From a plasmid: a stretch of 12,663 nt of DNA. Position 1 is the first letter of the stretch. Each line of letters opens with the position of its first letter. Shown one piece after another: positions 100-12,663 of this stretch. The DNA lies in the sequence record NZ_LT960779.1; one strand, 5' to 3'. The position numbers and the translations under genes were made by a program. The notes beneath the pieces are model-generated. The model was not told where the DNA came from, ran no database searches, and saw only the letters and a list, made by a program, of their open reading frames with translations.

Positions 100-407
100 A
101 ACGAACATAGCAGTTGAATTCTTGTTAAGATTCAGAAAAACTAACTGTTTGCTGTCAATGGTAGCGGACGAGCAAAGCGTGGGAGCATAAGGAATTGACA
201 GCTCTAAACCAGTCTTAACACTGAATTGGCGAAAGCCAAAGTTTCTATAAAACTTTGCTTTCCTGCCTAACGGCGAGTGAAAAAGCGGTTAAGCTGGCTC
301 AGCTTGGACGGGGTTCGGGGCGTTAGCGCCCGATTAAATGTGGCTTGCCACACCTTTTAAGCAACGAACAGCGTGAGGCGCAAGGCGCTGTGCGACTGGA
401 GTTTAAT
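100..407. other. GC-rich structured non-coding island upstream of the origin, containing several hairpins.
   Basis: No ORF above about 12 aa. Inverted repeats include gctgtcaat...attgacagc (153-201), aagctggctcagctt, ggggcgttagcgccc, gtggcttgccac and cagcg..cgctg. Local GC is much higher than the flanking AT-rich origin DNA. Confidence 0.4.
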
Positions 408-1658: not shown

Positions 1659-2199
1659 AACTATTAGAGAACTTGCTGATGAATTGGGCGTTTCAAAGCA
1701 GGCTATATGGCAAAAGATAAAAAGAGATGCGTCAATCGATTTACGTCAATTTACATCAACAAAAGGCAATACTGTTTACGTTGATGTTGATGGGCAAAAA
1801 GCTATTAAAGCAATGTTCTCAAACGATTCGTCAACAAGATACCGTCAACAAAAAGATGATGTTGACGACAACAAAAAAGATGCGGTTGATGGACAAGATG
1901 AAGTGAAATTCCTTCGAAATTTAGTATCAGAAATTCAATCTGAAAAGAAAGAGTTACATAAGTTACTAGATCAGCAACAAAGATTGGCCTTACAGGACAA
2001 ACAACTGCTCGAAGAATACAAGGCAGAAATTAAGGACTTGAAAGCCTTAACAATGGCACCGCATGATGATGGTGAAAAAGAAGTGACGTCAGACAAACAA
2101 CCGGAACCTGAAAATAGCACCCCGGAGTCACAACCTAAACCTAAAAAGTGGTGGCGTTTTGGTAATAGGGGTAACAGAAGAGCTTGCAGCAAAAAATAA
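1651..2199 (+). CDS. repB: Replication-associated HTH protein (RepB/OrfX-like, DUF536-type accessory protein).
   Basis: The ATG at 1651 is preceded by aagggg. The N-terminal HTH MPKTIRELADELGVSKQAIWQKIKRD is followed by a charged coiled-coil region. The gene is translationally coupled to repA by an 8-nt overlap. The first 10 codons of the ORF-track start (1621) lie inside repA. Confidence 0.7.
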   Translation: MPKTIRELADELGVSKQAIWQKIKRDASIDLRQFTSTKGNTVYVDVDGQKAIKAMFSNDSSTRYRQQKDDVDDNKKDAVDGQDEVKFLRNLVSEIQSEKKELHKLLDQQQRLALQDKQLLEEYKAEIKDLKALTMAPHDDGEKEVTSDKQPEPENSTPESQPKPKKWWRFGNRGNRRACSKK

Positions 2200-2248
2200 T
2201 TTAAGTGATTTTGGAAAAGTTACGATATTTAGGAAAGTGGGTTTTAAT

Positions 2249-4030
2249 ATGCGGTTAGCTAAGTTTGAAATTAAGAATTTTCGTGGGTATAGAGACGAAA
2301 AAATAGATTTTACAGATTTTACAACCTTCGTTGGTATAAATGACTCTGGGAAGTCAACAATTTTTGAAGCACTTGATATTTTTTTTGGAAATTCAAAGAT
2401 TGAAAAGAGTGATCGCTCAGTTAATTCAAACGATGACGTTGAATTAACTGCATATTTTAGCGATTTACCCAGAGAAATAAAATTAGAAACTATACCAACT
2501 ACGCTTAAAGAAGAGTTTCTTACGTTACACGATAACAATCTAGATAAAGATTATTTAGTATTAAAGCAAAATTATTCTGGTGAAGGAATGAAATTATCTG
2601 AGTTTTTGGTTTCAACCTTTCCATCAGATGAATCTGTTCAGGATATTCATACTTCTAAAATAACTGCGTTAAAGAAAACTTTTTCTAACTTAATAGCTGA
2701 CATAGATAAAAGAAAATCAACTGAAATAAGAAAAGTAGCTTTGAAAGATGCCGCTAAAAGAAGTGATCTCGCAACAACGGAAATTAGTTTGAACGGCAAA
2801 GGTACGTTAAAAGATATAGCAGGTGTAATTCATGTGAATTTACCCATGTATCAGCTATTTAAATCTGATCGAAGTAATACAGATGCTGATTCTGAGATTC
2901 AAGATCCTATAAAAGCAATTATAAAAACAGCACTTTCACGTCAGGATATACAAGATCAGTTAGTAGATATATCAAAAAACATAGAAGAATCGGTTACTAG
3001 CATAACAAATCAGACTCTAGGCATGTTAAGGGAGATGGATAATTCACTATCTAATGATCTTAAGGCTGATTTTAATAGTCCAAACTGGAGTTCGGTATTT
3101 AAGTTTAATTTGGATACTGATTCAGGGATACCATTAAATAAACGCGGTAGTGGAGTCAGAAGATTAATTCTATTGAATTTTTTTCGAGCCGAAGCACGAA
3201 GGAAATTAGAGCAATCTGAAAATGAAAAGAATAATGAGATTAATATAATCTATGCTTTTGAAGAGCCAGAAACTTCTCAGCACCCCAAATTCCAAAAAAT
3301 GTTAATTGATTCGTTCAAAACAATGAGTGATTTAGATCATGTTCAAGTATGTATAACGACGCACAGTCCAGCAATTGCTAAAATAGTTCCGAAAGATGGG
3401 ATACGACTAATTAAAAAACAAGCCGGGAATGCCAATGTGATATCTGGTCAAACAGCTATTGGAGAAGTAATTGAACAATTAGGAATTGTTCCTAATATAA
3501 AATTATATCCAGACCAATTGGATCGTGTAATATTAGTTGAGGGTCCTACAGATGTTGTTTTTTTTCAATATATTTATGATAATTTGAGTAGTAAAATTGC
3601 TAGTGAAAAATCTAAAACGGCATTTATATCTGGCGGTGGGGCTTCGATTGTAGATGTTTTGAATTCAAATTTCATTAATCAGTTAAATTTAAAAAAGAAA
3701 ATAATGATCGTTGATGGTGATGGAGCCGGTAGCGATGATAAAAAAAAGGCAGACGAAAATAATAATTTAAAAACTATCCAATTAAATAAATCTACAATTG
3801 AATTTTATTTGCCTTATGAAGATGTTCAAAACGCGTTAAAGGAAAGTGCGCAAAACCCCTTTATACGTACAAAGGATGAATGGGTAGTGGGTAACAATGA
3901 GTGTAAATTAAATAAGGCACAAAAAAGGATGCTTAAGGATAAAGAAATATATAATCATTTCAATTTAGAAAATATTCCCAGTTCCATCAAAACGGAGCTA
4001 AACAAGATAGTGCATGACATCGATGACTAA
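2249..4030 (+). CDS. OLD-family (overcoming lysogenization defect) nuclease: N-terminal ABC/AAA_15-type ATPase fused to a C-terminal Toprim domain. Class 1 (single-gene) architecture.
   Basis: The start is taken at ATG 2249 (MRLAKFEIKNFRGY...), with RBS aggaaag at 2231-2237. ATPase motifs are Walker A GINDSGKST, signature-like NKRGSGVRRLILL, Walker B/D-loop IIYAFEEPETSQHP and H-loop TTHSP. Toprim motifs are the glutamate motif RVILVEGPTDVVFF and the DxD motif IMIVDGDGAG. The ORF-track start at 2159 would overlap repB. Confidence 0.85.
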   Translation: MRLAKFEIKNFRGYRDEKIDFTDFTTFVGINDSGKSTIFEALDIFFGNSKIEKSDRSVNSNDDVELTAYFSDLPREIKLETIPTTLKEEFLTLHDNNLDKDYLVLKQNYSGEGMKLSEFLVSTFPSDESVQDIHTSKITALKKTFSNLIADIDKRKSTEIRKVALKDAAKRSDLATTEISLNGKGTLKDIAGVIHVNLPMYQLFKSDRSNTDADSEIQDPIKAIIKTALSRQDIQDQLVDISKNIEESVTSITNQTLGMLREMDNSLSNDLKADFNSPNWSSVFKFNLDTDSGIPLNKRGSGVRRLILLNFFRAEARRKLEQSENEKNNEINIIYAFEEPETSQHPKFQKMLIDSFKTMSDLDHVQVCITTHSPAIAKIVPKDGIRLIKKQAGNANVISGQTAIGEVIEQLGIVPNIKLYPDQLDRVILVEGPTDVVFFQYIYDNLSSKIASEKSKTAFISGGGASIVDVLNSNFINQLNLKKKIMIVDGDGAGSDDKKKADENNNLKTIQLNKSTIEFYLPYEDVQNALKESAQNPFIRTKDEWVVGNNECKLNKAQKRMLKDKEIYNHFNLENIPSSIKTELNKIVHDIDD

Positions 4031-4109
4031 TACTTAAACACCAAACAGAAAGGGGCTATGAATATATAGGGTCTATAACTATCAAATAGACCCTCAAAAT
4101 CATTGTTAA

Positions 4110-4157
4110 AATAACCCCCAATATCTATAATGTAGATGTTGGGGGTTATTTGTTTTT
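4110..4157. terminator. Bidirectional intrinsic terminator between the convergent OLD gene and the TA operon.
   Basis: aataaccccca (4110-4120) pairs with tgggggttatt (4140-4150) in an 11-bp stem, followed by tgttttt. A second hairpin, agggtctat..atagaccct, lies at 4068-4094. Confidence 0.6.
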
Positions 4158-4178
4158 ATATGGTATAAACGACTTCTC

Positions 4179-4535
4179 TTATTCGTCATTTTTTCGATAC
4201 CTTTTGGAACGATTTTGACCAGGAAATAAACGATCATGCGATCCGACTCGAATGCCAATTAAGACTAGTTCATCTTTATCAATCGTATAAACCACCAGGA
4301 CATCGTTAGTTTCGCTTGGTGTTTTGTTTTTCGGGGTATCTCGTAAGTGAAATTCATTATAACCGCTCATTCGCCGATTAAGCTCATGATCTTCAAATTC
4401 TGATGGTAATTGTTGTTGCTCAAGCAACAGGTCAACGGCTGCTCGAACTTCATCAATAATAGATTTGTCTAAACTGGCTAACCGTTTTAGATCAGCATTA
4501 AAAGTTGCACGTGGTTTAAATCTTAGTTTTTTCAT
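4179..4535 (-). CDS. Type II toxin, YafQ/RelE-family mRNA interferase.
   Basis: 118 aa. The core ...DHELNRRMSGYNEFHLRDTP...DVLVVYTIDKDELVLIGIRVGSHDRLF matches the YafQ pattern (DHxL..G..GYR..H....D.LLIY....L...R.GsH..LF). It lies downstream of the antitoxin with a 1-nt overlap (TAATG). Confidence 0.8.
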   Translation of the reverse strand: MKKLRFKPRATFNADLKRLASLDKSIIDEVRAAVDLLLEQQQLPSEFEDHELNRRMSGYNEFHLRDTPKNKTPSETNDVLVVYTIDKDELVLIGIRVGSHDRLFPGQNRSKRYRKNDE

Positions 4536-4889: not shown

Positions 4890-5477
4890 ATGCAACAAGT
4901 TGTCTTACCCATCAAAGATTCAAACGTTCTCAAAGAGGTTCAAGATACCTTACTCAACAACTTTAAAGCTGGCCGGCGTAACTATACAGTTTTTCAAGTT
5001 GGTAAAGCGACACTGTTGCGAGTCAGTGATGTCATGCGCTTAAAACAAACCGATATTTTTAATCCGGACGGTTCTATTAAACAAAATGCGTTCATTCACG
5101 ACCGAAAAACGGGTAAGCCTAATACCTTGTATCTTAAACCAGTTCAAACAGAGCTCTTATTGTACCGTCAATGGCTACTTGATCATAGACTAGCCTCTGA
5201 ATGGCTCTTTCCTTCCATTCAACACCCCGAGCGCCATATTACAGAAAAACAATTTTACAAAATCATGAGTAAGGTTGGCGATCTGTTAGGAATTAATTAT
5301 CTGGGTACTCATACGATGCGCAAAACCGGGGCTTATCGCGTCTACACACAATCTAATTATAATATTGGTTTGGTCATGAATTTGCTCAATCATTCCAGTG
5401 AAGCAATGACTTTAGCTTATTTAGGCTTAGACCAGGCTAGTACTGAAACGATGCTAGATCAAATTGATTTTGGTTGA
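4890..5477 (+). CDS. Small tyrosine-type site-specific recombinase (phage-integrase family). Likely a plasmid multimer-resolution or invertase-like recombinase.
   Basis: 195 aa with RBS aaggag 8 nt upstream. The C-terminal catalytic signature is THTMRKTGAYRVY...LNHSSEAMTLAYLG (HxxR followed by the catalytic Tyr). Its size is typical of LAB plasmid integrase/recombinase genes. Confidence 0.8.
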   Translation: MQQVVLPIKDSNVLKEVQDTLLNNFKAGRRNYTVFQVGKATLLRVSDVMRLKQTDIFNPDGSIKQNAFIHDRKTGKPNTLYLKPVQTELLLYRQWLLDHRLASEWLFPSIQHPERHITEKQFYKIMSKVGDLLGINYLGTHTMRKTGAYRVYTQSNYNIGLVMNLLNHSSEAMTLAYLGLDQASTETMLDQIDFG

Positions 5478-5513
5478 ATGCAATAGCGTATAACTTTAAA
5501 ATAATAATATATA

Positions 5514-5528
5514 TGGTATAATTCAAAT
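5514..5528 (+). promoter_or_regulatory. Extended -10 promoter (TGgTATAAT) ending 6 nt before the higB ATG. Predicts a leaderless higBA transcript.
   Basis: TGG at 5514-5516 and TATAAT at 5517-5522. The ATG is at 5529 and there is no Shine-Dalgarno sequence between them. Confidence 0.45.
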
Positions 5529-5900
5529 ATGGAAAAGCCAGAATTTGAAACTTACAAACGTCCCAATGGTCATGATGAATTCGATGAATGGTTACAGCAA
5601 CTGCCAATTAAAGATCGCGCTAAATTACTGCAAGTGATTACAGATACGCAGGATCAAGGTTTACTAGTCGCTCAACGCATGACTTGGGTTAAAAAGATAG
5701 AATCAGCTAAAAATTTATATGAATTAAGAAGTAAGGTATCCAGTAATATTCAACGGGCATTATACTTTCACGTTAAGGGACCAAAATATGTGATTACCCA
5801 TGGGTTTACCAAAAAGACACAAAAAACACCACCCGCTGAAATTAAACATGCGATTGAATTACGAACTGAATGGGAGGATAGTCAAAATGAAAATCAATGA
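5529..5900 (+). CDS. higB: Type II toxin, RelE/ParE superfamily, HigB/Gp49-like (phage Gp49 / DUF891 type).
   Basis: 123 aa. The segment LYELRSKVSSNIQRALYFHVKGPKYVITHGFTKKTQKTPPAEIKHAIE matches the Gp49/HigB family motif (..RI.YF...G.ii.LHGF.KKTQKTP..EI..A). The toxin-first gene order is typical of hig loci. Confidence 0.75.
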   Translation: MEKPEFETYKRPNGHDEFDEWLQQLPIKDRAKLLQVITDTQDQGLLVAQRMTWVKKIESAKNLYELRSKVSSNIQRALYFHVKGPKYVITHGFTKKTQKTPPAEIKHAIELRTEWEDSQNENQ

Positions 5901-8477: not shown

Positions 8478-8945
8478 CTAATCTGAAATGACCCCTTGAT
8501 TTTTGAATTCTTCTGAGTGTTGCGCCCGATATTTAGCCCCAGCTAGTTTATTCCAGTAAATACCGAACAGATTCGTCATGGTCCCGTACAAATAGTTTTC
8601 CACGTCCTTAACATGCTTCTCGTTACTTCTGAGCACGTTAAAGTATCTTCTCAAGGTCTTAGTTATCAGTGGTTTAAGCGTATCGTCACCTAAATTAATT
8701 TTGACTCCTAAGGCTTGATGTTCTTTTTCGAGGTTGTTTTTAGCATTCAAAATGATGCGGATAAAGCGTCGCATTTGTTGTGGTGTTCGACACCAGAAAC
8801 TGAGCAGTTGAATGGCTTCGGGTTCTAAGAAGACTTCCCAGCCACTTTCTGGATCGGTTAAAAACTCGTCAGCATGTTTTACTAAATCCCGGTTTTGGGT
8901 TTCAATTTCAGCTGGTGAAAAGTTAGTGCAAGAAATGCCCCACAA
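8478..8945 (-). pseudogene. 5'-truncated ORF remnant of unknown family, possibly from a mobile element, at the junction between the mob block and the high-GC block.
   Basis: 155 codons (about 42% GC) opening with TTG. An in-frame stop lies 2 codons upstream and there is no RBS. The reading frame is cut at the hairpin gttagac-ttctt-gtctaac (8949-8967). No confident family assignment can be made from sequence alone. Confidence 0.3.
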
Positions 8946-9303: not shown

Positions 9304-12108
9304 TTAATCATGCTCTGGGGCTACCGGCGGGCGATGCCAACGCAGCCACAGTTCTTTGATTCCAGACAAAATGAGGGTCGGTAGCGCCGGGATGAAGACT
9401 ACCGCAGCATACAGCGTGCTAGAAAGTGGCGCGGTCCCCATCACTTCGTTGAAGAACGGCATGATGGTGACAAGTAATGAAGCCACCGCCGCGAAAGCCA
9501 CTGCCAGCAGCAACTGATAGTTTTCAAACGGGTTGCGGGCGAACAAAGTGCGGGTGCTACGCGCGTCGAACACATGCCACAGCTGGCCAAACACCAGGGT
9601 CAAAAAGGCGAGGGTTTGCGCTTCTGCGCCGCTCATGCCTTGACTGGCAGCCCAGATGAAGGCGACATACACGAGCCCACCCATCACAATACCGCGCAGG
9701 AAGATGCGCCCGAGCATGCCATGCAAAATGGATTGTTTCACATTGCGCGGCGGCTGGTTCATGAGGTCGGCTTCTGGCACATCATAGCCGAGGGCAAAGC
9801 TCGGTAAAGCATCGGAAATCATGTTCACCCACAGCACCATCAGCGCCGTTAATGTTGGGGTGGTGGCCGCCACTTGGCCGACGGGTTGCGTCATCAGTAG
9901 CACGCCGAACAGCAGCGCCAACACCTCGGCGACATTGGTGGTTAACTCATGCCGCATAAAGTTTTTGATATTGCCAAAAATGGTGCGGCCGGCGCGGACA
10001 CTGCGCTCGATGGTGGTGAATTTATCATCCAGTAAAATCAGATCTGCGGCGTCTTTGGTGACTTCGGTGCCATTAATGCCCATGGCAATGCCAATGTCAG
10101 CAGCGCGTAAGGCTGGCGCGTCATTGATGCCATCACCAGTCATGGCCACGGTTTCGCCATGCCGCTGCAAGGCGCGCACGATGCGCTGCTTGTGTTCCGG
10201 CGACACCCGGGCGTATACGCGGATGCTTGGCGCGAGCCGGAACAAATCTTCATCGGTCATGGCTTCCAGCTGCTTGCCTTCCACTACCCGGGCGCTAGGG
10301 TCGGTGACAATGCCCAGCTTTAAGGCAATCGCGCGGGCGGTGACTGCGTGATCGCCGGTGATCATCACGACCTGAATACCGGCTTGGTGCAAGGTGGTCA
10401 CACTTTGGCGCACTTCCGGCCGCGGCGGGTCAATGATGCCGGCAATGCCTAGTAAGGTCAGGTGCTGCTCAAGCTCAGCGGTGCTACCATGCAACGCCAG
10501 GTCCTCGTCGATGTCACGCAGCGTCACCGCCAGCGTCCGCAGCGCCTGTTCGGCAAAGCGGTTGACCTGCGCTTCTACCGCAGTTTGACCAGCTGGCAAT
10601 GTTACGAGTTGGTCGTGGTCCAGAATGGCATCAGTTTTGGCTAAAATCACGTCTGGCGCACCTTTAGTCAGCACCTGATACTGGTCGCCATCTTTAATGA
10701 CGACACTCATCATTTTACGGTCGCTGTCAAACGGCAGTTCGCGAATGATGTCGATGTCCTGCGCCTGGTCTTTGCTCAAAATCGTATCGCGATCGATACC
10801 AAATTTGTGGCCCATCACTACCAGCGCTACGTCGGTGGGGTTGCCATACGGGCGGCTGCAGCCTTCGTCGTCGGTTTGAATCGCCGCTTCGTTATTCAGG
10901 ACAGCGGCCATCATGAAGCGCGAAAAGCCGGGGGTGTCGGCTTCGTCATCAGGGATGATTTCGCCTACTGGTTCATAGCCGTCGCCTTCCACCACATAAC
11001 TGGCGCCATTGGCATAAAACCGGGTGACAGTCATTTCATTTTTGGTCAAGGTACCAGTTTTATCTGAGGCAATGTAGCTGGTGGCCCCTAGGGTTTCCAC
11101 ACTGTTCAGGGACTTGATCAGACCGTTGTTTTTGGCCAGCATCGTGGCCCCGACCGTGAGCACAATTGACAGCACCGCCGGTAGCGCATCGGGAATCGCG
11201 GCCACCGCCAAGGCAATCGCCGTAGAGAGGGATTCGGCCAGCGCAGCGAAGGAGAGACTGCCAGTTTGCTGATAGGCTTTCAAGAGCTCCACCAGCAACG
11301 TGAACGCCACAATCACCATCGCCACCATCATCAGTTTGGTGGTCAGGCGCGCAATGGTGCGTTCAATCGGGGTCTTTTTGTCCTTGACTTGATCCAGCAA
11401 GGTGGCGATTTTGCCCAGCTCGGTTTGCATGCCGGTCGCAACCACCACCCCGAGGCCGTTACCATGCGTCACTGTCGCACCAGAAAAGCCCATGTTGGTG
11501 CGGTCACCGATTTGCACGTCAGCGCCCAATGCGTGGGTTTGTTTTTGCACAGGTTCCGCTTCGCCGGTGAGGTGGGCTTCGTTGGTTTGCAGCTCGGCGA
11601 CATGGAGCCAGCGAACGTCGGCTTCGATGAAGTCGCCGGTTTTGACACTGACAATATCGCCAGGCACCAGCTCGGTGGCTGGCACCGTCAGCCAGTCGCC
11701 ATCGCGCAGGACCTTGGCGTGGTGATCCGCCATCACCTTCAGGGCGTCCAGGGATTTTTGTGCGCTTTTGGCTTGCCAGAAGGAGAGGCCGGCATTAACG
11801 AAAATCAGCAGCAGAATCGCAATGCTTTCATACACTGCCGCCATACCATGGCTGGGGTCGTGGCGCACGAAGAAGTCATAGCCGGCGCTGGCCCAGGCCA
11901 ATAGCACGGCGATGAATAAAATAATCACCAAAGGTTCTTTCAAGGTGGCCAAAAACTGGCGCCAGGCTGGTAGGGGCTTGCTGGCGGCCAAGGCGTTGGG
12001 GCCATGCTGGGTGAGCCGGGCCTGTGCTTCTTCACTGGTGAGGCCGCTTTGCCGGCTGGTGGCCAAGCGCTTTAGGACATCTGCTTTGTGTTCGTTGTAA
12101 GGGGTCAT
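9304..12108 (-). CDS. Cation-transporting P-type ATPase (type II, Ca2+/Mg2+-ATPase PMCA/SERCA-like, E1-E2 family).
   Basis: The start is taken at ATG 12108 (MTPYNEHKADVLKRL...GLTSEEAQARLTQHGPNAL), with RBS ggagg 6 nt upstream. Motifs include the TGE-like actuator HLTGEAEPV, phosphorylation site IASDKTGTLT, TGDHAVTA and hinge MTGDGINDAPAL, plus about 10 predicted TM segments. The ORF-track start at 12177 reads through a palindromic leader. Confidence 0.9.
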   Translation of the reverse strand: MTPYNEHKADVLKRLATSRQSGLTSEEAQARLTQHGPNALAASKPLPAWRQFLATLKEPLVIILFIAVLLAWASAGYDFFVRHDPSHGMAAVYESIAILLLIFVNAGLSFWQAKSAQKSLDALKVMADHHAKVLRDGDWLTVPATELVPGDIVSVKTGDFIEADVRWLHVAELQTNEAHLTGEAEPVQKQTHALGADVQIGDRTNMGFSGATVTHGNGLGVVVATGMQTELGKIATLLDQVKDKKTPIERTIARLTTKLMMVAMVIVAFTLLVELLKAYQQTGSLSFAALAESLSTAIALAVAAIPDALPAVLSIVLTVGATMLAKNNGLIKSLNSVETLGATSYIASDKTGTLTKNEMTVTRFYANGASYVVEGDGYEPVGEIIPDDEADTPGFSRFMMAAVLNNEAAIQTDDEGCSRPYGNPTDVALVVMGHKFGIDRDTILSKDQAQDIDIIRELPFDSDRKMMSVVIKDGDQYQVLTKGAPDVILAKTDAILDHDQLVTLPAGQTAVEAQVNRFAEQALRTLAVTLRDIDEDLALHGSTAELEQHLTLLGIAGIIDPPRPEVRQSVTTLHQAGIQVVMITGDHAVTARAIALKLGIVTDPSARVVEGKQLEAMTDEDLFRLAPSIRVYARVSPEHKQRIVRALQRHGETVAMTGDGINDAPALRAADIGIAMGINGTEVTKDAADLILLDDKFTTIERSVRAGRTIFGNIKNFMRHELTTNVAEVLALLFGVLLMTQPVGQVAATTPTLTALMVLWVNMISDALPSFALGYDVPEADLMNQPPRNVKQSILHGMLGRIFLRGIVMGGLVYVAFIWAASQGMSGAEAQTLAFLTLVFGQLWHVFDARSTRTLFARNPFENYQLLLAVAFAAVASLLVTIMPFFNEVMGTAPLSSTLYAAVVFIPALPTLILSGIKELWLRWHRPPVAPEHD

Positions 12109-12138
12109 AAGTTTCCTCCAATAAGAAAAGGCCGCACC

Positions 12139-12172
12139 CAAGAAAGCTTTCCTCCCCGAGAAAGCTTTCTTG
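12139..12172 (-). promoter_or_regulatory. Perfect 13-bp inverted repeat (CAAGAAAGCTTTC-N8-GAAAGCTTTCTTG) in the ATPase leader. Candidate operator or leader hairpin.
   Basis: The arms are exact reverse complements. The element lies 31 nt upstream of the ATPase ATG and downstream of a candidate promoter (TTGACA at 12242-12247 on the minus strand). Confidence 0.4.
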
Positions 12173-12663
12173 AGCACCGCCCAACCGAATTTTTTGAATT
12201 AGTTACCTTTTATTGCTAGTTTAAAGGATACCTAGTGTTGCTGTCAAAAGATTTGGCCCGGGCCGCCGGTGGCGTGGGCAACGTGCACGTTTTCTAGTCG
12301 CTAAACTGTGAACAATGCTCGTGCTAAATGCAAAACTGAGCAAGGAGATGAACTATAAGCGGGGGATCCTTTGCTATTGAGGAGGCAGGCGAAGTAGAGA
12401 AAGAGCGGTGATTTGAACTCGAAACAGCGGCGCCTGCGCAGGAGCGCGAAGACGCCGCTGATTGCGGTAAAAGGTTACTGACGCTGTTACGACTAGCGTT
12501 CAGCGCACGACTGCTTGTGGGGGTGGTCGCCTGCCAGGACGTAACCGGCGCCGCAGGCTAGCAGCACTGTCAGATTAATCGCCAGCAGCAGATACTAGAC
12601 AGCTTCTTATATTTTGAAAAAAAGACAAGAAGATATTATTAATCGTCCTGGCTTCGTTATTTA

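Follow-up and report, generated by a model that had tools for sequence, protein, structure and literature searches.

A predicted single-gene (Class 1) OLD protein carried as cargo behind the replication operon of a Latilactobacillus plasmid, a candidate phage-defence nuclease

The DNA analysed here is a stretch of 12,663 nucleotides (nt) from the plasmid record NZ_LT960779.1, referred to below as the window, and all coordinates are positions in it. The plasmid is a 12.7-kb mobilisable theta plasmid of Latilactobacillus. Directly behind its repA-repB operon the plus strand holds the gene of interest, old, which reads from ATG 2249 to TAA 4030 (2249-4030, stop codon included) and was assigned to a Class 1 OLD-family ATPase-Toprim protein of 593 amino acids (aa) from its open reading frame (ORF), Pfam matches, profile matches and the ratio of nonsynonymous to synonymous substitutions (dN/dS). 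The upstream repB gene stops at 2197-2199, leaving a gap of 49 nt, and a Shine-Dalgarno-like sequence, AGGAAAGTGGG, was found at 2231-2241 (+), 7 nt before the ATG, both as an earlier note on this DNA had described. Within this ribosome-binding region, TTAGGAAAG was kept in six of the six aligned alleles and was followed by TGGG or CGGT. In GenBank/RefSeq the gene is annotated with 623 aa from TTG 2159 and overlaps repB. Since all homologues start with MRLAKF or MKL, and since position 1 of the AAA_15 model aligns to residue 1 of the 593-aa product, ATG 2249 is the correct start and the 623-aa call is over-extended.

Two domains were recognised in the protein. Pfam AAA_15 aligned to residues 1-377 over its entire length (model positions 1-374 of 374, E = 1e-67), and a Toprim domain was found at residues 425-526 (3521-3826, +), where two Pfam families (PF20469 and PF24395) were matched above gathering score, with 28-30 bits for OLD-like_TOPRIM (cutoff 23.2) and 28-30 bits for OLD-like_TOPRIM_1 (cutoff 27). 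The invariance of motif residues was judged in an alignment of 30 homologues with 36-96% identity. In the ATPase part, the Walker A motif or P-loop GINDSGKST (residues 29-37; 2333-2359, +) has invariant G29, N31, D32, G34 and K35, the ABC signature-like KRGSG (residues 298-302; 3140-3154, +) has invariant K298, G300, S301 and G302, the Walker B motif IIYAFEEPE (residues 333-341; 3245-3271, +) has invariant Y335, F337, E338, E339, P340 and E341, and the H-loop TTHSP (residues 370-374; 3356-3370, +) has invariant T371, H372, S373 and P374. The acidic residues of the Toprim domain (+ strand) are invariant as well: E431 in ILVEGPTD (3539-3541), D435, the DxD pair D489 and D491 in IVDGDGAG (3713-3721), and E518. 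Q218 and G432 are likewise invariant. The Walker B motif aligns with the EEPE motif of the Thermus scotoductus protein Ts OLD, and for the Toprim glutamate and DxD the alignments show counterparts in P2 Old, YbjD and Ts OLD. The protein thus combines an ABC ATPase head of the SMC/Rad50 type with a Toprim nuclease domain in one chain. This agrees with the earlier note, which had proposed the OLD architecture of an ATPase of the ABC type together with a Toprim domain; all the motifs it quoted are present in the translation, with their key residues invariant.

Three features that have been described for OLD proteins were considered in addition. In Class 1 a conserved Arg or Lys equivalent to R487 of Ts OLD completes the active site, and in the homologue alignment a basic residue, K514, lies four positions ahead of the invariant E518. 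OLD proteins have a dimerisation domain inserted in the ATPase and form dimeric or higher assemblies; the AlphaFold2 model of the window OLD, with a mean predicted local distance difference test (pLDDT) score of 80.8, has some 250 aa inserted after Walker A and ahead of the signature, with strands at 64-125 and helices at 138-263. Class 1 proteins are without the C-terminal helical domain of Class 2 and are shorter than Class 2 proteins; the model has about 70 helical residues after the Toprim core, and with 593 aa the window OLD is not short.

Comparisons with known proteins placed the window OLD within the same family. When the profile of the homologue alignment was compared with PDB sequences, the best match was Ts OLD (6P74, E = 7.6e-24), in an alignment that spans Walker B, the H-loop, the Toprim glutamate and DxD, followed by GajA (3e-15), PtuA (1e-14) and AriA (1.2e-06). 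Foldseek searches with the AlphaFold2 model matched GajA, Ts OLD and the retron-Eco8 OLD at 1e-15 to 1e-17. In hhalign comparisons P2 Old was aligned with a probability of 98.3% (E = 1.7e-14) over 414 columns that include the Toprim VEG..(E/D) and DxD motifs, and Escherichia coli YbjD with a probability of 92% (E = 5e-7). The Old model of PADLOC matched the protein at 5e-32. The Pfam, Foldseek and profile matches, together with the homologue alignment, support the architecture of ATPase and Toprim that the earlier note had assigned. Under the published definition (PMC7049728, PMC10568477) the protein is predicted to be a single-gene (Class 1) OLD. The family is large, with more than 5,000 matches at E <= 1e-10 among the candidates scored, and the gene adds a member to it rather than a new kind or class of system.

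The gene stands alone. Its neighbours encode RepA (Rep3), RepB (helix-turn-helix, HTH), YafQ/Phd, a 195-aa tyrosine recombinase, Gp49/HTH, MobC/relaxase, a P-type ATPase and a protein with Bac_RepA_C. Among the window ORFs and these neighbours Pfam detected neither a helicase nor a reverse transcriptase, and no gene with DUF4435 or HNH. A helicase resembling UvrD/PcrA/Rep beside old was found neither at the 100%-identical loci, where all neighbours were searched with Pfam, nor in 15 other genomic contexts of old homologues, and no partner gene was conserved across those 15 contexts. The contexts, in which the homologues have 35-96% identity, are unrelated to one another: some homologues lie behind a type II or type III-like restriction-modification (R-M) system, others next to a recombinase on enterotoxigenic E. 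coli (ETEC) and IncHI2 plasmids, and others on chromosomes of Leuconostoc, Oenococcus and Weissella. Hence the absence of a UvrD-like helicase or AriB/DUF4435 partner, on which the earlier note had based its class-1-like assignment, extends from the window to the relatives. Gabija was ruled out since no gajB helicase lies in tandem. Septu and the retron PtuA were rejected as well, since PtuA matched on the ATPase motifs only (48 bits against a cutoff of 500) and no HNH gene is adjacent. No sign of a retron beside old was seen, with no reverse transcriptase among the window ORFs or in the Pfam matches of the neighbours and with the Bacillus-plasmid RNA at 151-211 as the only Rfam match. On the Leuconostoc citreum plasmid pPUL105_2, a 63%-identical OLD is followed after 5 nt by a 156-aa hypothetical gene (5288-5758 of locus L008) which is absent from the window; the same plasmid also holds a locus with dps and an OLD stump.

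Sequence divergence was used to ask how the gene has been maintained. By the Nei-Gojobori method, dN/dS of the window old was 0.27 against the 96%-identical allele and 0.16 against the 91% allele, and the values were similar in both parts, with 0.16 for the ATPase and 0.19 for Toprim. Values of 0.16-0.27 show purifying selection on old, and both domains are subject to it.

The junction with repB was compared among alleles. The repB gene (1651-2199, +) encodes a 182-aa HTH protein; its start overlaps the repA stop, and it is the upstream gene of a putative repA-repB-old transcript. Its Pfam HTH matches are sub-threshold only (HTH_11, 24.2 bits against a 25-bit cutoff), and in the annotation of relatives it is labelled an HTH domain-containing protein. 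The 96% allele, which we call the L023 type, was present on 24 metagenomic and isolate contigs, where it lies behind a repB-like gene (192 aa) belonging to a replicon of lactococcal type, whose 396-aa Rep has L_lactis_RepB_C. Homology between this allele and the window spans the whole 107-nt intergenic region and continues into the 3' end of repB (81% identity, blastn). The window lacks 38 nt between two TAAC repeats (L023 3887-3924). This deletion removes the repB stop codon, so that repB gains seven codons (2166-2199; the RepB C-terminal extension RRACSKK), and it shortens the gap between repB and old from 107 to 49 nt and removes a promoter-like site, TTGGCA-18-TAGAGT. By alignment and blastn, the stretch 2166-2248 (+), which is intergenic in the 96% allele, is the part fused to repB by the deletion here. 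In the 91% alleles (identity at the DNA level), found on plasmids of L. plantarum and L. pentosus, homology to the window starts no earlier than about 2205-2229, some 20-45 nt before the ATG. These alleles are preceded by about 300 nt of unlike DNA, which in three of them follows a D12 methylase gene and a gene for a 214-aa PD-(D/E)XK protein. Since the homology of the 96% allele crosses the intergenic region into the repB of a different replicon, the repB-old junction is of long standing and recurs in a second replicon type, rather than being a fresh insertion. The gene is also a movable cassette, bounded by the ribosome-binding region and a hairpin at 4109-4151.

This hairpin (4109-4151, strand not assigned) is a long terminator with a 20-bp stem and a T-run, which old has in common with the convergent toxin-antitoxin genes yafQ-phd. 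Further plasmids with old lose homology to the window at 4151-4189, and the hairpin is the right-hand limit of the conserved old cassette. The same backbone order, consisting of the P-type ATPase, ori, repA-repB, a slot, toxin-antitoxin, recombinase and mob, was found in many Latilactobacillus and Lactiplantibacillus plasmids, and old is a cargo gene in this slot, which varies in content and has the repA-repB operon on one side and the toxin-antitoxin/recombinase module on the other. The slot contains a polysaccharide deacetylase gene in pKG6_1, a polysaccharide deacetylase and a GIY-YIG nuclease gene in plasmid 3 of L. sakei J54, HNH, SIR2 and TIR genes (Thoeris-like) in L. paraplantarum pls4, and dps with the last ~250 nt of old in plasmid 3 of L. 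sakei MFPB19, whose coordinates are the same as those of the window up to position 2168. Another filling in relatives is a type II R-M pair with OLD and an Abi_2 gene. The slot behind repB (about 2200-4160 in the window) looks like a cargo and defence hotspot.

The distribution of the gene in PLSDB was uneven. The first 1.5 kb of old was found in 7 records and the last 280 nt in 212 records (95-99% identity), so more than 200 plasmids keep only a stump of old. The stump adjoins an insertion sequence (IS)-end sequence, GGTAGATTGTAAAATTAA or the inverse of it, together with a dps cassette, and the breakpoint is essentially a single one near 3771-3780. This points to a single ancient IS-mediated truncation of old which later spread. 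In this widespread locus the intact gene is thus the rare, ancestral state. The dps cassette behind the truncation of the OLD gene in these plasmids is flanked by an IS-end element resembling a miniature inverted-repeat transposable element (MITE), GGTAGATTGTAAAATTAATCCGAACG with its inverse; this element was located at 2284-2486 and 3113-3131 in locus L014, at about 520-575 in L004 and at about 1950 in L002, and it is also present upstream of the intact old in pNCHBL-3.

The G+C content is 31-33% in old, 31-39% in the rep and toxin-antitoxin genes and 45-49% in mob. The earlier note had argued from a shared G+C content that old is not a recent insertion. Its conclusion stands as far as the junction is concerned, given the 96% allele; the composition is indecisive, because the plasmid pool of lactic acid bacteria (LAB) shares it, and old sits in a variable slot. 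The P-type cation ATPase block (9304-12177, -) has 54-59% G+C and is a clearly foreign segment; together with the composition of mob it marks the plasmid as a mosaic.

The expression signals around old were searched in the same region. The Rep3-type initiator gene repA (723-1658, +; Pfam Rep3_N and Rep3_C) is preceded by an origin with 11-13-bp repeats at 474-521 and 22-bp iterons in 4.5 copies at 556-656. The best promoter-like site, TTGACT-17-TAAAAT (667-695, +; 10 of 12 consensus matches), lies between the iterons and repA and is the likely rep promoter. For old, a weak sigma70-like site, GTAACA-18-AATAAT (2171-2200, +; 9 of 12 matches), inside the 3' end of repB is a possible promoter of its own, and a similar site, TTAACA-17-AAAAAT, is present in the 96% allele. 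Promoter-like sites in the region were no commoner than expected by chance from shuffled sequence, and thus no clear promoter for old was found, sites with 9 of 12 matches being the only ones. On the plus strand between 400 and 4900, terminator-like sites were predicted only at 408 and 4109 and none between repB and old, where the earlier note had seen none either. A 116-nt stretch across the gap folded no better than shuffled sequence (z = -0.3), there was no Rfam match there, and no regulatory RNA structure or attenuator was found in the gap.

Since there is no terminator or stable structure between repB and old, read-through and hence co-transcription of old with repA-repB is plausible. Transcription of the gene would probably be weak and come from the rep promoter next to the iterons, with a possible contribution of the weak internal site; it would stop at the hairpin, and translation would use the gene's own ribosome-binding site. 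As to the coupling to plasmid copy number suggested in the earlier note, gene dosage tracks copy number for any plasmid gene. A more far-reaching version holds that the OLD nuclease is wired into a RepA-autoregulated repA-repB transcript in at least two replicon families, so that replication control acts as an infection sensor. If so, the OLD level would follow the replication-control state of the plasmid instead of a promoter of its own, and a phage or rival replicon that disturbs RepA or iteron occupancy would raise the dose of a toxic OLD nuclease. We consider this version improbable and offer it as a speculation.

With its identity and domain architecture, its intact motifs, the signature of purifying selection, its stand-alone status and the past of its slot established, the question of function arises. 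Class 1 OLDs defend against phage (PMC12392090, PMC12445682, PMC13261556). The Vibrio cholerae protein Vc OLD nicks DNA and, acting by abortive infection, stops the phage genome from being replicated; both of its active sites are needed (PMC12392090). In P2 Old, ATP hydrolysis activates cleavage of the anticodon stem of tRNA-Thr(UGU), and the protein acts when RecBCD is inhibited (PMC12445682). Ts OLD, of solved structure, is a metal-dependent DNA exo/endonuclease using two-metal catalysis (PMC7049728), and the anti-phage phenotypes of YbjD need its ATPase and not its Toprim domain (PMC13261556). The statement in the earlier note that Class 1 OLDs are essentially uncharacterised is outdated in view of Vc OLD, P2 Old, YbjD and Ts OLD; the part of it that stands is that no tested homologue from a Gram-positive plasmid was found. 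We propose that the window encodes an intact single-gene Class 1 OLD, carried as plasmid cargo, that most likely serves as a nuclease in anti-phage defence by abortive infection, to which we assign a probability of roughly 0.6. By analogy with the characterised Class 1 OLDs, a defence role is the most likely one because the catalytic residues are all conserved and because defence genes are frequent in this slot of sister plasmids. In relatives, the slot or its neighbourhood contains a type II R-M pair, Abi_2, SIR2 with TIR, and GIY-YIG and HNH nucleases. In such a role, ATP binding and hydrolysis by a dimeric ATPase would license the Toprim domain, which would cut nucleic acid by two-metal catalysis via E431, D435, D489, D491 and E518; by precedent, the candidate reactions are DNA nicking as in Vc OLD or tRNA anticodon-stem cleavage as in P2 Old.

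Several points weigh against this proposal. The OLD here is only distantly related to P2 Old, with about 25% identity, and tblastn missed P2. Class 1 OLDs vary in substrate and even in their need for Toprim, as YbjD illustrates (PMC13261556), and therefore the mechanism is not safely transferable. Most plasmids of the lineage have lost old, and therefore its benefit to the plasmid is not indispensable. On the side of expression, old may have its own transcription from the weak site in the 3' end of repB, and the 107-nt intergenic DNA of the 96% allele holds two promoter-like sites. Finally, no literature on a Class 1 OLD of LAB plasmids and no experiments on close homologues were found. A lactococcal plasmidome study lists PARIS and Septu, and a term search of it returned no single-gene OLD; the LsGajA paper deals with a Class 2 OLD and not Class 1 (PMC13304284).

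Other roles were weighed against phage defence. The OLD might instead attack incoming or co-resident foreign DNA and help its own plasmid to hold the cell, as its location on a plasmid next to replication and stability modules would allow. Nicking or linearisation of plasmid DNA in vitro has been described for Ts OLD and for Class 2 OLDs (PMC10568477), and a LAB Gabija system reportedly lowered the uptake of foreign plasmids (PMC13304284). Two near-identical old plasmids are present in one assembly, so old would not exclude its own kind. However, no action against plasmids is known for a Class 1 OLD, strains that carry old hold several other plasmids (e.g. pIRG201, from a multi-plasmid strain), and the window contains no self/non-self marking gene, so that we regard an anti-plasmid nuclease as unlikely. 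A role in replication or maintenance, for example in processing replication intermediates, would explain why old directly follows a repB-like gene in the same orientation in two replicon types, with homology crossing the junction and no terminator between repB and old. The archaeal OLD ATPase Cran1, with a reported cell-cycle role, is a loose precedent for a non-defence function (PMC12796447). The slot history argues strongly against it, because the more than 200 PLSDB plasmids with the same repA-repB and only the ~250-nt stump are evidently maintained, other sister plasmids have unrelated genes in the slot, and close homologues are chromosomal. We hold such a role to be highly improbable.

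The two remaining explanations concern partners. In three examined full-gene PLSDB records the order on one strand is repB-like gene, D12 methylase, 214-aa protein, old, and it could be argued that old normally works with the DNA adenine methylase and the PD-(D/E)XK protein and that the window copy is a detached remnant. This is very unlikely, though less so than a part in replication, since the methylase and the PD-(D/E)XK nuclease form an ordinary, self-sufficient type II R-M pair separated from old by a spacer of about 300 nt, and since old is without the pair in the window lineage, the 96% lineage, pNCHBL-3 and all more distant homologues. In addition, the window allele is under purifying selection relative to the R-M-linked alleles. 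A three-gene methylase, PD-(D/E)XK and OLD system as a requirement was ruled out on the absence of the pair from most contexts. The least probable explanation is a fused PARIS system, i.e. AriA and AriB in one polypeptide ('Class 4'), cleaving tRNA and triggered by phage anti-restriction proteins. Single-gene AriAB fusions have been reported (PMC10568477), and the best PADLOC match of the protein was AriA (2.3e-58, residues 1-377). That match covers the generic AAA_15 ATPase part only (373 model positions, compared with 374 for AAA_15), whereas the C-terminal 193 aa match OLD-like_TOPRIM, give no DUF4435 match even at E up to 10, and on their own match only Old and GajA in PADLOC. AriA also scored far below Ts OLD in the PDB profile search (1.2e-06 against 7.6e-24), and with no DUF4435 and a generic ATPase match the candidate was ruled out.

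A few observations concern the plasmid at large. Upstream of the origin repeats, Rfam RF01691 'Bacillus-plasmid RNA' was matched at 151-211 (+) with 74 bits (gathering score 31). At 8478-8945 (-) Pfam recognised a Bac_RepA_C domain in a 155-aa ORF, and related plasmids are typed by MOB-suite with two replicon clusters, so the plasmid may hold a second replication-related module. The first 5 kb of the window, the part compared, are 100% identical to OZ061414 (12,662 bp) and OZ061415 (12,470 bp) of GCA_964063755.1. In these two records of one assembly the rep-OLD-TA (toxin-antitoxin) regions are 100% identical, and in OZ061415 a shorter stretch stands in place of the one that corresponds to window 325-406; the two records may represent forms of a single plasmid or a duplication in the assembly.

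If tested, the protein would provide the first characterised Class 1 OLD of a Gram-positive host and of a plasmid, and its hosts are food-fermentation lactobacilli, in which phage resistance has practical value. The locus also provides a natural experiment, since the same backbone occurs with intact old, with a stump and with other cargo. Comparison of these backbones allows tests of cost and benefit and of the read-through expression of defence genes behind a rep operon.

Among the known systems, the best solved relative is Ts OLD (PDB 6P74), the structural archetype of Class 1, by profile as well as by single sequence. The two proteins have only 15-20% identity in structural alignments and differ in length (528 aa against 593 aa), and Ts OLD is without a known biological role. 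The window OLD family has a clear GSG signature, whereas Schiltz et al. call the Class 1 signature degenerate (PMC7049728). The Class 2 OLD of Gabija, GajA, gave a weaker profile match than Ts OLD (3e-15 against 7.6e-24) and has the gajB helicase in tandem, while the window old is followed by a terminator and convergent toxin-antitoxin genes. YbjD (OldB) of E. coli is likewise a stand-alone OLD and was aligned through the Toprim glutamate and DxD, but it is more distant than P2 Old, is a chromosomal core-genome gene, and does not need its Toprim domain for the phenotypes that have been reported (PMC13261556).

P2 Old, the founding Class 1 OLD, is likewise a single-gene ATPase-Toprim protein of similar length (586 aa) and an accessory gene on a mobile element, with about 25% identity to the window OLD by hhalign. 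It is prophage-borne with its own old-tin promoter, whereas the window gene is plasmid-borne; its trigger (RecBCD inhibition) and target (tRNA) are features of P2 and may differ from those of the window OLD. A tblastn search of the phage collection with the window OLD (E cutoff 1e-5) gave no match to P2 and no close phage-borne homologue, with two weak matches in uncultured gut phage contigs. Vc OLD, from a phage defence element of V. cholerae, resembles the window OLD by description rather than by sequence comparison: it is also a single-gene Class 1 OLD on a mobile element, adjoining a toxin-antitoxin system, and its low native expression (PMC12392090) is in line with the low level predicted for old. 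It differs in that it nicks DNA, belongs to a distinct clade and comes from Gammaproteobacteria (PMC12392090), compared with a Gram-positive host and a plasmid here. Defence by Vc OLD requires its ATPase and nuclease residues (PMC12392090), and all of these are conserved in the window OLD.

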